64,000 bases of DNA, from UHGV virus genome UHGV-0120889; one strand, written 5' to 3'. Source of the stretch: a virus. A program made the position numbers and the translations under genes. How positions within the stretch are numbered: position 1 is the stretch's first letter; each line of letters begins with the position of its first letter. Below the pieces are notes generated by a model. It had not been told where the DNA came from. It saw only the letters and a program-made list of their open reading frames with translations, and searched no databases. Below are positions 14,309 to 21,592 of this stretch, piece by piece.

Positions 14309-15397
14309 TTAGATAAAACGCTTGAACATAGAAGGTGATGAGATTGATGGAATCACACAAGGAAGTGCTACTTCCTCTTTCTCCAGGAAATTAATAGCAG
14401 AAGCTACACAGTCAGCCCAGTCGTCTTTTCTGTTAAATGTTGATCTTTCCCCGTTGAATTTTTCAAGTTCAGTCAGAAATGCTTCCAGAGTATCAGGATG
14501 GAAACTGGATTTTACAATCCTCACCATTCCTTGTTGGGCAAGATTGGCAAAAGGTGAGAACCTTGTCAGTTTAGATTTGTTGGAAGGCATTGGGTCTTCT
14601 TCAACCCTAAACCCTTCGGCAAGCAAGGATCTGGAGGAGGTTAAGAACTCACTCTTACCTGCCTGACCGGGGTCCACAGAGAATACGATTATACAATCAT
14701 CACCATCAAACTGCGCCTGTTTCCTGATGATCACATCTCGTTCACCAGCCTTTTTACAGAACTTGCCTTCTAGACCTGTGGAATACCTCCCGTCATCCAC
14801 GTTCTCAGGACAATAATCACCGGACAGGTAATAAAAGCCGTCGCTATCTTTACTTACCTTAACACTGGCGGTAAAGTCAGGAAATTTATTACCGGAAGTT
14901 CTCTCGGTTCCTGCCTTATCCCATGCCCTGCAAGATACTGATCCAAGGGGTACTCTATCGGCATCACGAAGGAAAGATCTTTGAAAATAGTTTGCGCCCT
15001 CAGGCTTTGCAAACCAGTTACCATGAAGAAGCTGAGCTTTTTCCAGTTCCGGCAGACCTTCAAGGAAAGCAAGGTATTCTGGGTTGTCTCTTAAGCAAAC
15101 AGGATTATCGAATATTGTTGCGCCTATAAACGAGAATGACAACGGTCTTGGCTTGATCTCCACACCAAGTCCGTTAACCGTGGTGTATTTCTCTATCAAC
15201 TCTTCTTTAGAGTCCCCCCAGATAAATTCACCGTCGCGTCGGATAAAATATCTTTTCTTACCGCATTTCTCCGGATCTGGATACCCTTCATCGTCCAACC
15301 ACCACCTAACCAGTTTGGCAAGCATGTGTTCTGAATCGGGGTTACAGCTGATAACCATTCTTGATGGATACTTTGACTGAGATCGCAGACGAGACAT
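14309..15397 (-). CDS. terminase large subunit, C-terminal (nuclease) segment; 5' boundary approximate (exon 2)
   Basis: Same strand, immediately downstream of the ATPase segment after a ~340 bp ORF-less gap; frame open upstream of first Met to 15433. Confidence 0.75.
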   Translation of the reverse strand: MSRLRSQSKYPSRMVISCNPDSEHMLAKLVRWWLDDEGYPDPEKCGKKRYFIRRDGEFIWGDSKEELIEKYTTVNGLGVEIKPRPLSFSFIGATIFDNPVCLRDNPEYLAFLEGLPELEKAQLLHGNWFAKPEGANYFQRSFLRDADRVPLGSVSCRAWDKAGTERTSGNKFPDFTASVKVSKDSDGFYYLSGDYCPENVDDGRYSTGLEGKFCKKAGERDVIIRKQAQFDGDDCIIVFSVDPGQAGKSEFLTSSRSLLAEGFRVEEDPMPSNKSKLTRFSPFANLAQQGMVRIVKSSFHPDTLEAFLTELEKFNGERSTFNRKDDWADCVASAINFLEKEEVALPCVIPSISSPSMFKRFI

Positions 15398-15746
15398 CAG
15401 ATAGTCTATCTGCTCCCATTCGAATTGTGTCGTTTATGTTCGGGCAAGGTCGCTAGTCTTGCCCCGCCATTTTCAGGCAGCTGCATGTCTCCATGCAGAC
15501 CAGACTATATCTTATAAGCGACAACAACCGCTTATCCTCCCGTTTCGAATCGCTTGATTCTACGTCTTTCGACTAGTCGTTGAACGTTCATCCTCTCGGA
15601 TGCTTCGCTGCGGATTATCTAAATTAACACACTGTTACCATACCTTCGATCTCTCTTCGAAGCCTCTATCATGTTACCATGACAGGTTGGTGGTATTAAT
15701 AGTAAAGATTTCCCCGCAATTAGGGAGGTTTTACGAGAGCTACAAA
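15398..15746 (-). other. ORF-less intervening sequence inside terminase large subunit gene (putative self-splicing intron)
   Basis: No ORF in any frame; multiple perfect hairpins (CTGCATG/CATGCAG, CTTCGA/TCGAAG, GGGCAAG/CTTGCCC); separates Walker-A/B ATPase part from C-terminal part. Confidence 0.5.
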
Positions 15747-16175
15747 TTAACCCTCATCGAAGCAAACCATGGTGTACTCAAGCCCTTGATGGTTAAGCTT
15801 ATCTTGTACATACTCCATGTGGCAGTATTTTACAACAGCTCCCTTTTTGCTTCTATCCCACTTGCCAGTGTTCGGATCAAACCGTGGAAAAATGAACTTA
15901 TGATCCTTCTCTCTGAACTTTGGCTTAATGTTTTCAGGCAGATCACTATAAATAGCTACCGCTTTAGGCCATAGTCCACCCTCACCTTCCAACTGCGGGG
16001 TTGTTCTTCGGAACATAACCACAGAGCTGTGGGGGTCATCAATAATTTTAAGTGGCATCAATTGCAAGAGGAACGACTTGCCAGACCCTGCGGCACCGCC
16101 GATTACCAAAATATCTGCATCGTTTTCGAGGATCATCTTCTGCTTTTCAGAACACGGTCCGTAAATCTTAGACAT
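15747..16175 (-). CDS. terminase large subunit, N-terminal ATPase segment (exon 1; 3' boundary approximate)
   Basis: Walker A VIGGAAGSGKSF and Walker B-like VCFDE motifs characteristic of large terminase ATPase domain. Confidence 0.8.
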   Translation of the reverse strand: MSKIYGPCSEKQKMILENDADILVIGGAAGSGKSFLLQLMPLKIIDDPHSSVVMFRRTTPQLEGEGGLWPKAVAIYSDLPENIKPKFREKDHKFIFPRFDPNTGKWDRSKKGAVVKYCHMEYVQDKLNHQGLEYTMVCFDEG

Positions 16176-17278: not shown

Positions 17279-17355
17279 TGGTCTCCACGGAGTGATTCGA
17301 ACACTCGACCTCCTGATCCCAAATCAGGCGCTCTACCAAGCTGAGCTACGCGGAG
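17279..17355 (-). tRNA. tRNA-Pro (anticodon UGG)
   Basis: Manual cloverleaf: acceptor CTCCGCG/CGTGGAG, D-arm GCTC..GAGC, anticodon loop UUUGGGA, T-loop TTCGAAT, encoded CCA. Confidence 0.85.
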
Positions 17356-17366
17356 TATTTATTATT

Positions 17367-17441
17367 TGGTGGCCCTGGGTGGAATTGAACCACCGTCTGG
17401 CGATTATGAGTCGCTTGCTTGAACCTTCCAGCTACAGGGCC
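17367..17441 (-). tRNA. tRNA-Met (anticodon CAU; could be Ile-lysidine type)
   Basis: Acceptor GGCCCTG/CAGGGCC, anticodon loop CUCAUAA, T-loop TTCAATT, encoded CCA. Confidence 0.8.
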
Positions 17442-17442
17442 A

Positions 17443-17518
17443 TGGTGCTGATGGCAGGACTTGAACCTGCAACCTATTGATTACAAATCAATTGCACTAC
17501 CAATTGTGCTACATCAGC
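17443..17518 (-). tRNA. tRNA-Thr (anticodon UGU)
   Basis: Acceptor GCTGATG/CATCAGC, D-arm GCAC..GTGC, anticodon stem ATTGA/TCAAT loop UUUGUAA, T-loop TTCAAGT, CCA. Confidence 0.85.
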
Positions 17519-17524
17519 AAAAAA

Positions 17525-17623
17525 GGTGCTAGGTGATGGAATCGAACCACCTATGTATTCAACGACTACCTCGTCTATTTTCAGGATTAAAAATCCTCGC
17601 CCTTGCCAAAGGGCTTACCTAGC
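17525..17623 (-). tRNA. atypical tRNA-like gene (possible anticodon UUU; ~30-nt extra arm)
   Basis: Acceptor GCTAGGT/ACCTAGC, D-arm GCCC..GGGC, T-arm GGTGG-TTCGATT-CCATC present, but 99 nt long with oversized variable region and no encoded terminal A. Confidence 0.3.
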
Positions 17624-17721
17624 TCAGTATGTTGACCATGTTGCTAGTCGGCGATGACGACTGTAACATTTGATAATCCGGTTCTGCTTCCGGCTTTCGC
17701 TTAATTACAAGGTCAACAATA

Positions 17722-17812
17722 TGGCTGAGGGTAATGGAATCGAACCATCATCGAGTCATCCTCAACGGGACGGTTTTCAAGACCGCTTGAGCACCATTGC
17801 TCCCTACCCTCA
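17722..17812 (-). tRNA. tRNA-Ser (anticodon UGA), type II
   Basis: Anticodon arm GCGGT-CUUGAAA-ACCGT, long variable arm, T-loop TTCGATT, acceptor TGAGGGT/ACCCTCA, CCA. Confidence 0.75.
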
Positions 17813-17926
17813 TTTATAAACAATACTGATAATGACACTGATTTTCGAGCAGTTAGTGACTAGTATAAACGACGATAAATATCAATGCCATTATCTGTAT
17901 GATTTATGCATTTAAAACTATAAATT

Positions 17927-18013
17927 TGGTGGGGAGTGGTGGAGTCGAACCACCCGAGTCGTAATGACAATAGATTTACAGTCTACACCGCTACCTCTAC
18001 GGGATAACTCCCC
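17927..18013 (-). tRNA. tRNA-Tyr (anticodon GUA), type II
   Basis: Anticodon loop CUGUAAA and variable arm TGTCATTACGACTCG closely resemble bacterial tRNA-Tyr; acceptor GGGGAGT/ACTCCCC, CCA. Confidence 0.85.
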
Positions 18014-18017
18014 AATT

Positions 18018-18092
18018 TGGCACCCCGTACTGGACTCGAACCAGTGTCAACGGCTTAGAAGGCCGCTGCTTTATCCACTAAGCTAACAGGGC
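18018..18092 (-). tRNA. tRNA-Arg (anticodon UCU)
   Basis: D-arm GCTT..AAGC, anticodon arm GCGGC-CUUCUAA-GCCGT, T-arm ACTGG-TTCGAGT-CCAGT, CCA. Confidence 0.8.
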
Positions 18093-19196: not shown

Positions 19197-19406
19197 TCAA
19201 CAGATTCCGGCCTTATCCCTCCTGTCTGCGTATTCTTTAATCGCAACCTCATCTGCATTGGTGACTAAATCTTCAAAGTAACTCTCAAGCTCCTCGTCAA
19301 TGTCAGGAAACCAACTCTTTTTCCTATCAGTGTGAATCGCAGACTTGTTGAATTTATTACAGTTCTTTGCTACCGGATTGTTCATTAATCGCCCCTCAGC
19401 GTTCAT
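19197..19406 (-). CDS. hypothetical protein (69 aa)
   Basis: ORF track; overlaps upstream gene stop. Confidence 0.35.
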   Translation of the reverse strand: MNAEGRLMNNPVAKNCNKFNKSAIHTDRKKSWFPDIDEELESYFEDLVTNADEVAIKEYADRRDKAGIC

Positions 19407-19974
19407 AGTAAATCTTATTTAACATTACCTCATCCTTTGCAGAAAGAATACCGAGATATGCATCACCGAACCTACCTGCAACAACCTCTACATGATACAT
19501 AACTTCGTTAATATCGTCAAGAGTGATAACTGGATGACCGTACCTCTCTGAGTATTGTCTCAGAGTGCGATGTAGGGAATCATCATCGTAGGCAGACTTT
19601 TTAATATCACAAACACGACGAATAGCCTTGATGTCGAAAAACCCTGTGCGATACCAACCAAGAAAAAGGTTTCGTACAGTGTCAACACCTACATCAACAC
19701 CGTCAAGAACCTTATCTACAAGATAGCTGTCATCCTTTGGACCTGCTTCCTTAGTTCGAATGTAGTTGCCATCTTTTCCTGGTGACAGCTCCTTCTCATC
19801 ACCAACCTGAATGCCATCATTTGGCGGTGTTAACCACTTATCCGGATGCTTACGATCACGAGCGTTAGAATGATTACGCTGGAAACCTGGCTTCCACTTG
19901 AAAGTTTTCTCCATCTGTTCTTCATTCTGATAACGTTTTGCAATCTTTTCACGGTCATCTTTGCGTGGACTCAT
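19396..19974 (-). CDS. hypothetical protein (192 aa)
   Basis: ORF track; GAGGAGG RBS upstream of ATG at 19974. Confidence 0.5.
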   Translation of the reverse strand: MSPRKDDREKIAKRYQNEEQMEKTFKWKPGFQRNHSNARDRKHPDKWLTPPNDGIQVGDEKELSPGKDGNYIRTKEAGPKDDSYLVDKVLDGVDVGVDTVRNLFLGWYRTGFFDIKAIRRVCDIKKSAYDDDSLHRTLRQYSERYGHPVITLDDINEVMYHVEVVAGRFGDAYLGILSAKDEVMLNKIYYER

Positions 19975-20480
19975 AGCTGCCTCCTCTTCAAGTTATAGAA
20001 AAACTCACTGTATCGCTTTGTAACGAGCTTTTCTATCAAACTGGTGCGATTGCCTTACCTGGTATAGTTTATATAGCTGTGGAGCGATTTAGGGGCCTTC
20101 TTGTCCGTTTCCACACATAAACTTCATCCAAGCTCGCGCGGGAGACTCTCAACCGACTCCTTACGGCGCTGGCAAGCTTTCGTCGGTGGTCCACATCAGT
20201 GCTCGGCCTTTGGCCTGCGCTATCGCTTCGCTCCCACACATGTTAACAGACCTTCATGTATGCACTTCTGTTATTGTGTGCACCAAGGAGGCCCGGCATC
20301 TCGCCCCTCGTAGGCGAGTGCCAATGAAGGGCCGACACTACCTATAGTAAGTAATAAATTTAAAACATGGTACTTAGGATCTAGTATATTCTACATAAGT
20401 TAAGTATATGTACTTAGTACCATAAGTACTAGATCTTTTATTTTTTTTTTATTATTTAGTTATTTTAGTTATATTCTTTA

Positions 20481-20567
20481 TGTGTCCGTATCACGGACAG
20501 TTAGTGTCCGTATTACGGACAGATGTGTCCGCGTGACGGACAGTAGTGTCCGTATCACGGACAGTTA
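20481..20567. repeat. array of four 17-bp palindromes TGTCCGT-N3-ACGGACA at ~21-22 bp spacing (operator/iteron-like)
   Basis: Read directly: TGTCCGTATCACGGACA, TGTCCGTATTACGGACA, TGTCCGCGTGACGGACA, TGTCCGTATCACGGACA. Confidence 0.8.
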
Positions 20568-20630
20568 CTAACCTCTGTTCCAGAGTGAACATAAAACATA
20601 CGAATCCTTATAGTACAGATATTTAAGTTT

Positions 20631-20990
20631 TTACTGGTCTAACCAGTTGTTGACATTCGAATAACTTCTTCTGGTGGCAAAACTTTGGAAAATGTGCATC
20701 TTTTTACCTCTCCCTTGTGTGGATATTTCAACCACTCCTGCACATTCTAAAGTTTTAACGCACGCTGCTGCTTTTGTTTTCTTTATCCCAATATCTGCTG
20801 CAATTTTCCTTGTGCTGGGCGTGAAGCGTGAATTTCCTCCAAGCTTATACCAGTTGTGCAGGTAGCAGTATACGATCTTGTCATATAAGTCAAGAACAAC
20901 AACCTCACCAGTTGTGTCATTCAAAACTTTTGACATAGACAGTATTTCAAGGGGGACTTTAAGATATAGCAGCTTATCCCCATCTTTCAT
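20631..20990 (-). CDS. putative HTH DNA-binding protein (119 aa)
   Basis: Helix-turn-helix-like segment (RKIAADIGIKKTKAAACVKTLECAGVV); adjacent to palindrome array. Confidence 0.45.
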   Translation of the reverse strand: MKDGDKLLYLKVPLEILSMSKVLNDTTGEVVVLDLYDKIVYCYLHNWYKLGGNSRFTPSTRKIAADIGIKKTKAAACVKTLECAGVVEISTQGRGKKMHIFQSFATRRSYSNVNNWLDQ

Positions 20991-21037
20991 ATCTCCTGAT
21001 TCTCCTTGTGTGGCAATTTTCTTTAAAATAGCAGGGA

Positions 21038-21592
21038 TTACTCCACGCTGTCAATAGCAAGACTCATTGCAATACGGTATGCCTCTTCTAATGGTAAGAG
21101 TCTCCCCCACACATCCCAACCGACATCAAACTGCCTGCCAAACAACTGCTGTGTGGTTCCGTGAGCATGACCGAACAGTTGGACCGATCCGTGAGGCTTT
21201 CTGTTCCACTTTGCAAACTGGTAATGGCTCATACAGATCAAATTCTTGTTGTGGCGAAGCTCGTAATAATCTACAACCTCATGACCGAACTCTTTCATAA
21301 TTCTGACAGTCGTCCTTGTGTCATGGTTACCACGAACAAGAATAATATGTCCGTTCAACATATTTAGAACATCTGGGAGCAATTTGTTAATATTCTTATC
21401 ATTAGTGCACGCAATATCTCCTAAGTGAAACACAGTGTCTGCAGGTGACACAACAGAGTTCCACTTGGTGATGATCCCCGCATTCATACTGTCAAGATTG
21501 TGATCATACTGAGATCTGTGTTTTTGACATGAGTCAAACTCCATGACCCGCTGGTGGAGAAAGTGTGTGTCGCTTGTTACAAAGTATTTCAT
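21038..21592 (-). CDS. calcineurin-like metallophosphoesterase (putative polynucleotide 2',3'/3'-phosphatase)
   Basis: Metallophosphatase motifs VTSDTHF, HLGDIA, VRGNHD, GHAHG; start at internal ATG 21592 with GAGGAA RBS. Confidence 0.65.
   Translation of the reverse strand: MKYFVTSDTHFLHQRVMEFDSCQKHRSQYDHNLDSMNAGIITKWNSVVSPADTVFHLGDIACTNDKNINKLLPDVLNMLNGHIILVRGNHDTRTTVRIMKEFGHEVVDYYELRHNKNLICMSHYQFAKWNRKPHGSVQLFGHAHGTTQQLFGRQFDVGWDVWGRLLPLEEAYRIAMSLAIDSVE

Follow-up and report, generated by a model that had tools for sequence, protein, structure and literature searches.

The RepA protein of PLE, a satellite of Vibrio cholerae, binds semi-palindromic iterons with its N-terminal domain, the structure of which is 4RO3 (PMC7145576). 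RepA is needed for PLE replication, and deletion of the iterons abolishes it (PMC7145576; PMC8263062). By BLASTP, PLE RepA is not evidently similar in sequence to the RepA_N proteins (PMC7145576). In the RepA_N plasmids, the N-terminal domain of the initiator binds four tandem Rep boxes, the origin lies beside or inside the initiator gene, and replication requires the C-terminal domain of the protein (PMC5703833). Plasmid pPR9 has a functional initiator which binds DNA through an HTH_36 domain (PMC5703833).

In ori lambda and in the Rep_3 origins (pPS10, R6K, RK2), sites in a register of ~22 bp abut an AT-rich region near the initiator gene. The lambda O and Rep_3 proteins carry extra domains that recruit helicase loaders, and Rep_3 iterons are bound by monomers. 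DnaA boxes are common in plasmid origins and are not universal near iterons. Plasmid initiators commonly both initiate replication and regulate transcription. Closely spaced palindromes that a dimeric HTH protein binds cooperatively are also known from the lambda OR/OL operators, which the array described here resembles.

Here we describe a palindrome array in a 64,000-nucleotide stretch of viral DNA (UHGV-0120889; the whole stretch is called the window). The product of the adjacent gene, the counterpart of rV5 ORF79, resembles the N-terminal DNA-binding domain of PLE RepA, a domain that Odn of ICP1 has as well, but it lacks the C-terminal domain that is thought to recruit the replisome in PLE. 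The three PLE iterons are ~30 bp long, whereas the rV5 sites are 17 bp long, are spaced by 21-22 bp and number from two to six. PLE is a satellite, whereas the rV5-like element is a 136-kb virulent myovirus which encodes its own polymerase and T7-type primase-helicase. With the RepA_N plasmids of Firmicutes (pSK41, pTZ2162) the rV5 protein shares the N-terminal winged-helix fold, and the semi-palindromic iterons that RepA_N and PLE systems carry in tandem within or next to the initiator gene have a likeness here in the four 17-bp palindromes. However, the Pfam RepA_N model (PF06970) did not match the protein, which also lacks the C-terminal domain that interacts with primase. In pSK41 the gene itself contains the Rep boxes, between the parts that encode the two domains, whereas the rV5 array lies outside. 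The inverted sub-repeats of RepA_N iterons converge on poly-A, whereas the rV5 centres TATCA, TATTA and CGTGA do not; convergence of this type was seen in the sites of phage phiPMW (GGACAAAATGTCC) and of the Erwinia group (TCAATTTGA).

With ori lambda and the Rep_3 origins the locus shares the register of its sites, the abutting AT-rich region and the nearby gene for an initiator-like protein. Transcription crosses the locus as it crosses the lambda origin, and the AT-rich tract contains an oriC-type 13-mer, as in classical iteron origins. It differs in having no DnaA boxes, which classical iteron origins often have, and in palindromes that imply dimers, in contrast to the monomer-bound iterons of Rep_3 systems. 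The architecture is that of the textbook; one unusual trait is that a large virulent phage has an initiator-like protein which lacks the effector domain.

Results

A unique palindrome array in an rV5-like phage

Positions 19900-21100 of the window were 99.8% identical to Escherichia phage rV5_ev147 and matched 119 phage records, nearly all of them Vequintavirus (rV5-like myoviruses, ~136 kb). Judged by this similarity, the source of the window is an rV5-like E. coli phage (Vequintavirus). For the genome scans the window was combined with the remaining 73 kb of rV5_ev147 flanks, giving ~136 kb; the flanks and the window have zero overlap, so "genome" here denotes a composite and not one contiguous genome. 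The features of the locus are collected in Table 1.

Table 1. Positions and properties of the features at the locus, numbered by window position.
Feature	Position	Strand	Sequence or size	Remarks
ORF77	19396-19974	-	192 aa	first gene downstream of the module; genus-restricted
G+C-rich stretch, AT-rich tract to ORF77	20070-20339		270 bp, 55% G+C	no credible ORF; highly conserved across Vequintavirus
AT-rich tract, candidate DNA unwinding element	20340-20481		~19% G+C	directly abuts site 1
Match to E. coli oriC 13-mer consensus GATCTnTTnTTTT	20432-20444	+	GATCTTTTATTTT	exact; sole exact match in the window, 0.12 expected
Palindromic site 1	20483-20499		TGTCCG-TATCA-CGGACA	exact match; in 12/13 genomes, missing from navn (unit deletion)
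Palindromic site 2	20505-20521		TGTCCG-TATTA-CGGACA	exact match; right half CGGGCA in most relatives
Palindromic site 3	20526-20542		TGTCCG-CGTGA-CGGACA	exact match; missing in bov10K2 and JES2013, duplicated in typing phage 14
Palindromic site 4	20547-20563		TGTCCG-TATCA-CGGACA	exact match; in 13/13 genomes
Spacer, gene stop to array	20568-20639		72 bp	diversity 0.111, at or above third-codon-position level
Small winged-helix protein gene (rV5 ORF79)	20631-20990	-	canonical product 116 aa (P0001)	
Sigma-70-like promoter	21025-21054	-	TTGACA-18-TATTTT with TG	upstream of the ORF79 gene; positional counterpart of rV5 P76 (DQ832317)

The pattern TGTCCG-N5-CGGACA had four exact matches in the window, with start-to-start spacings of 22, 21 and 21 bp. 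Even at ≤1 mismatch only 0.03 matches were expected in the shuffled 64-kb window, and none of 100 shuffles reached four. An earlier note on this DNA had described four TGTCCGT-N3-ACGGACA sites 21-22 bp apart. The number and spacing of the sites were confirmed, but the 7-bp half-site has to be shortened: 6 bp are strictly common, and site 3 (TGTCCGC...ACGGACA) is asymmetric at the seventh position. The array can also be parsed as eight half-sites which alternate in orientation every 10-11 bp. A search of the rest of the genome showed the array to be unique, with no further site at ≤1 mismatch in the window or in the ~136-kb composite; the composite contained two 2-mismatch matches, which looked like chance occurrences.

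The array begins ~77 bp downstream of the canonical stop of the minus-strand ORF79 gene. The surrounding non-coding gap extends from 19975 to 20639, and the coordinates agree with the original description of an array in a non-coding region, downstream of an HTH gene and beside an AT-rich tract. Some records (naam, Alma) annotate the repeats merely as 'repeat_region'. The assembly MG065672.1, an rV5-like genome labelled Campylobacter phage A141, has window 20567, the final base of the array, as its first position. Since other assemblies start elsewhere, a break of the assembly at the repeat is more probable than a physical end.

Selection on the array and the adjoining tract

The array was present in 13 of 13 genomes inspected, always in a 21-22 bp register and in two to six copies: two in navn, three in bov10K2 and JES2013, six in O157 typing phage 14, and four in most. 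Non-conservation in related phages had been named at the outset as an observation against the proposed function, and the array was kept in every related genome inspected. The copy-number pattern fits unequal exchange between units. Among the 50 sites compared, the half-sites and the central T were invariant save for two recurrent single changes, and the remaining centre positions and the linkers were variable.

Pairwise diversity was 0.020 for the array and 0.026 for the AT-rich tract, compared with 0.073-0.084 (3-4 times the array value) at third codon positions of the flanking genes. Since the diversity of both is below that of third codon positions, the sequence comparison indicates purifying selection on the array and the AT-rich tract, and not on the spacer, which is the fastest-evolving stretch of the locus and has strongly conserved sequence on both sides. 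The spacer is probably the junction or scar of an ancestral rearrangement (inversion) that set the gene tail-first against the array.

Over 60, 100 or 140 bp, no duplex of the window is less stable than the AT-rich tract (~20342-20481). Its nearest-neighbour ΔG over 100 bp was -101.3 kcal/mol, compared with -109.1 for the runner-up and a mean of -132.8 (sd 6.0), a difference of 5 sd from the mean and of 7.8 kcal/mol from the runner-up. It was also less stable than every 100-bp stretch in the fetched rV5_ev147 flanks. The match to the oriC 13-mer consensus (PMC4451416) was noticed post hoc; the 13-mer was found in all 12 Vequintavirus loci and was absent from the rest-of-genome loci L018 and L019. 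No DnaA boxes (TTATNCACA, ≤1 mismatch) were found within 19975-20640.

Other repeats were observed in the same tract. GTACTTAG/CTAAGTAC occurs three times in 50 bp at 20370-20436 (4 in the whole window), and these copies are flanked by two GATC-containing inverted repeats (GATCTAGTA / TACTAGATC). A second factor, or Dam/SeqA, may act at these sequences. AGATCTTTT is conserved in the AT-rich tracts of the Erwinia, Klebsiella, 4MG and GAP31 relatives as well. A homopolymer at 20441-20450 is T10 here and T5-T9 in relatives.

The G+C-rich stretch on the other side of the tract folded slightly better than its shuffles (z -2.65), RNAalifold detected only one two-sided covariation, and rV5 and Murica lack 18 nt at the predicted hairpin tip. 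A search of Rfam over the intergenic region gave no family at gathering or relaxed thresholds; a match to rli43 was dismissed (23 bits, threshold 100). This stretch may serve as a long leader for ORF77, encode a structured RNA or belong to the origin region. A hairpin with a 12-bp stem (ATAGAAAAACTC / GAGCTTTTCTAT) was observed at 19995-20036, in leader sequence shortly before the ribosome-binding site of ORF77; as it has no T-run, it is not a terminator.

A small winged-helix protein similar to initiator domains

The ORF79 gene product has 116 aa in all relatives, and the ORF in the window has 119 aa. An extra T at 20701-20705 (T5, compared with T4 in all relatives) frameshifts the last ~20 codons, and the canonical stop would fall at 20640-20642. 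The homopolymer differences at 20701-20705 and 20441-20450 are either sequencing errors or real variants. If the T5 variant is real, the C-terminal tail of the ORF79 protein would be dispensable.

Records label the gene as 'putative transcriptional regulator' or, in RefSeq, as 'replication initiation protein'. A Pfam scan gave HTH_36 at the cut-off (25.1 bits) and DUF6945 below it (26.9 bits, cut-off 28). In PHROGs, the protein fell into family 12838, 'replication initiation protein', and all matches were replication-initiator or unannotated families; there were weak matches to the N-terminal parts of four more initiator families, lambda O-like among them. The sole significant match in a PDB sequence search was 4RO3 (E 2.5e-6). 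An AF2 model built from a 16-sequence alignment reached a pLDDT of 82.6, compared with 43 for the single sequence. When this model was searched with Foldseek, the top matches were chains A and B of 4RO3, followed by the staphylococcal RepA_N domains 4PQL, 4PT7 and 5KBJ, which were interleaved with CodY and CadC; 4PTA was also among the matches. The N-terminal-domain fold, a winged helix of the RepA_N/DnaD-like kind, spans 104-110 residues of the 116-aa protein, which has no C-terminal effector domain, and neither a paralogue nor a fused version was found elsewhere in the genome. On the predicted fold, the ORF79 protein is a stand-alone homologue of the iteron-binding N-terminal domain of RepA_N-type initiators. 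Homologue searches, both word-indexed and exhaustive (HMMER), returned only close copies (84-96% identity) or remote ones (25-35%), and a scan of IMG/VR with the ORF79 protein found no relatives.

Equivalent modules in other phages

In cultured phages outside the genus, each homologue of 25-35% identity lies beside phased palindromes of its own. In Erwinia phage pEp_SNUABM_01 (Henunavirus), two copies of TGCTCA-ATT-TGAGCA, 23 bp apart, are located just upstream of the ATG of gp227 (BLASTP E 2e-7), and an AT-rich tract and a sigma-70-like promoter precede them. The layout is the same in Klebsiella phage KPP-1 (Mydovirus; 105 aa, E 9e-6), which has an alignable site region, and in Escherichia phage 4MG and Cronobacter phage GAP31 (Seunavirus; ~67-68% identical to gp227), which have the conserved core TCAATTTGAG. 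In Pseudomonas phage phiPMW, three 23-bp-phased copies of GGACA-AAA-TGTCC lie 85 bp upstream of the gene (gp115). No homologue was found at the syntenic position of the phapecoctavirus Nernie.

The AT-rich tract adjoins the sites in all three sister genera, Henunavirus, Mydovirus and Seunavirus (Vequintavirinae), where the two sites lie between the sigma-70-like promoter and the start codon, ~20 bp or less from the ATG. Compared with these genera, the gene of the rV5-like phages is inverted relative to the sites-plus-AT-rich unit. These sequence comparisons indicate that the module, consisting of an AT-rich tract, 21-23-bp-phased palindromes and a small RepA_N-like gene, is old. That half-site and protein differ together is in favour of a cognate pair, and we consider it very probable from the sequences that the array is the binding-site set of the ORF79 protein. 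Because the sites-plus-AT-rich unit stays intact while the gene flips, a function of the unit as such is favoured.

Metagenomic homologues (P0010-P0021, from loci L015 and L016) are longer, at 182-217 aa, and several have long acidic C-terminal tails that end in ...EAPF, ...EEPF or ...PPWEA; the rV5 protein has no such tail. By analogy, these tails appear similar to the protein-recruiting tips of SSB and T7 gp2.5. In one metagenomic sequence the gene of the homologue has a primase-helicase gene on one side and a PolA gene on the other. Within 5 kb, locus L015 had no array, and locus L016 had just a weak two-copy 22-bp repeat and no clear array.

Transcription across the locus

The early leftward operon consists of PNK, phosphoesterase and ORF79, followed by ORF77 and the tRNA cluster. 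Transcription from the promoter upstream of ORF79 crosses the ORF79 gene, then the array and then the AT-rich tract. No promoter of at least 9/12 overlapped the array on either strand, with 8/12 candidates nearby at best, and the rV5 annotation has no promoter at the array. The array cannot serve as an operator for ORF79's own promoter, and simple autorepression is inapplicable because the array is downstream of the gene. The AT-rich tract ends in a -10-like TATATT located 7 bp before site 1, at the position of a conserved TATAGT in the Erwinia, Klebsiella, 4MG and Cronobacter relatives.

ORF77 had no match in Pfam, NCBIfam or the PDB. Since the order in pSK41 is DNA-binding domain, origin, effector domain, ORF77 might by analogy be the missing partner of the ORF79 protein, as a split-off counterpart of the RepA_N C-terminal domain.

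The minimum of the genome-wide cumulative GC skew was at window 22050, 1.5 kb from the array, and coincides with a switch in transcription direction (divergent transcription). The authors of the rV5 genome had sought the origin by GC skew and failed, and ascribed every skew change to transcription (PMC3606486). In the literature searched, no mention of an origin or of iterons in Vequintavirus or phiPMW was found.

Discussion

The array had initially been proposed to be either a cooperative operator or a set of origin iterons. This proposal is strengthened by its conservation, purifying selection and uniqueness, by the RepA_N-type family and fold of the adjacent protein and by the palindromes beside the homologues. 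Of the two functions, the evidence leans to iterons, because no promoter is present at the array in the rV5-like phage and the least stable duplex of the genome abuts it. We propose, with a probability of about one half, that the array and the abutting AT-rich tract are the iteron-plus-unwinding-element core of the phage replication origin. This origin reading is favoured by the protein family, by the phased repeats next to the weakest duplex with its 13-mer, by the single locus, by the toleration of 2-6 copies, by the lack of a promoter at the array and by the nearby skew minimum. An iteron origin calls for at least three sites in helical register (~21-23 bp) and an adjacent AT-rich element; both are found here (22/21/21), and the register is preserved in the 2-, 3-, 4- and 6-copy variants.

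We infer binding, melting and a role in replication from the observed architecture, conservation and protein family and fold. Dimers of the ORF79 protein would bind each TGTCCG-N5-CGGACA site, and the 21-22 bp phasing would place two to six dimers on one face of the DNA, allowing cooperative binding, bending or wrapping. The resulting stress, together with read-through transcription from the upstream promoter, would open the AT-rich tract with its oriC-type 13-mer, so that the T7-type primase-helicase and polymerase of the phage could enter. Several observations count against an origin: the protein consists of a DNA-binding domain and nothing more, DnaA boxes are missing, the sites of the sister genera are at the position of an autoregulatory operator, the skew minimum is confounded by transcription, the 13-mer is a post hoc match, and two metagenomic homologues lack a clear array.

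A bolder version of the origin reading is that the initiator has been reduced to its DNA-binding domain, and that a 116-aa RepA_N-like protein fires the origin of a virulent 136-kb myovirus. In-phase wrapping by two to six dimers and read-through transcription would then have to open the oriC-like 13-mer alone, and we regard this version as unlikely. The module could also double as a transcriptional roadblock which couples early gene expression to origin firing, and origin and transcriptional roles are not mutually exclusive.

The main rival is a purely transcriptional one, in which the ORF79 protein is a small repressor and the four sites are a cooperative operator or roadblock. The array would then control either read-through, in which transcription of the early leftward operon continues into ORF77 and the tRNA cluster and further downstream, or a weak rightward promoter in the AT-rich tract which gives RNA antisense to ORF79. 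We consider this possible, though on the unlikely side. A bare DNA-binding domain is of repressor size, palindromes suit a dimeric repressor, and the array sits within a long co-directional transcription unit (PMC3606486). As in operators of the lambda OR/OL type, the sites of the Erwinia, Klebsiella, Escherichia 4MG and Cronobacter phages lie in the gene's own leader, and the -10-like TATATT before site 1 has its counterpart in the TATAGT of these relatives. However, the array of the rV5-like phage follows the gene instead of preceding it and overlaps no reasonably good promoter on either strand, and the nearest relatives of the protein in sequence and fold are replication initiators and not regulators or repressors. 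A purely transcriptional function also leaves unexplained why the least stable duplex stays with the sites despite the reorientation of the gene, and one target locus in 136 kb speaks against a global regulator.

At the RNA level, the palindromes could be a row of hairpins in the 3' UTR of the ORF79 mRNA, which stabilises or processes the transcript in the manner of REP/BIME elements. The array follows just after the stop codon in the transcribed direction, its single strand forms stable hairpins (z = -7.7 against shuffles), and the common site 2 variant CGGGCA still pairs (G-U). We nevertheless find this explanation highly improbable. The half-sites keep an identical sequence in all units, beyond mere complementarity; double changes that compensate each other were not observed, and pairing is disrupted in the FV3 variant TGCCCG. 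The strict 21-22 bp register across the copy-number variants has no obvious RNA rationale, the homologous modules of relatives are upstream of the gene, and a cognate-looking DNA-binding protein is encoded next door.

Small terminases also have N-terminal winged-helix domains that act on repeated sites. That the array is the pac site of a headful-packaging phage, and the ORF79 protein its missing small terminase subunit, is very unlikely: the rV5 genome is circularly permuted (PMC3606486) with its small terminase unannotated, the large terminase gene is ~4.3 kb from the array and the MG065672 assembly starts exactly at the array end, but the RepA_N-like domain fills all 116 aa and leaves no room for an oligomerisation core, terminase structures are absent among the fold matches listed, spanins and tRNAs lie between the gene and the large terminase, and other assemblies start elsewhere.

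Few E. coli myoviruses are isolated as often as the rV5-like phages, which serve in typing, biocontrol and therapy and the origin of which has never been located. The locus provides a candidate that consists of one protein, one 17-bp site and one 140-bp melting region. If the origin reading is correct, the locus would help in engineering rV5-like phages and in constructing replicons dependent on them. The known range of the RepA_N-like origin-binding domain, now Gram-positive plasmids and Vibrio satellites, would also grow to include large virulent coliphages, and the question would arise of how an initiator without the effector domain works. If the array is a repressor array instead, it would be a regulatory checkpoint inside a long leftward transcription unit.

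Additional observations

A 137,565-bp rV5-like genome, CP057073.1 (102789-103136), is on record as a 'plasmid', classed as non-mobilisable, of an E. coli isolate obtained from pooled faeces of cattle. Either the isolate had a contaminating infection, or this supposedly virulent phage persists as an episome in a carrier state; the record is a hint that the module could support episomal carriage.

The large terminase gene (14309-16175) is split by a group I intron at 15481-15759 on the minus strand (Rfam, 84 bits), which has already been described for rV5 (PMC3606486). A cluster of seven tRNA genes is located at 17279-18092 on the minus strand. It includes a tRNA-like gene of 97-99 nt (17525-17623), to which ARAGORN assigned a four-base anticodon and which other records list as 'tRNA-OTHER' or tRNA-Lys.
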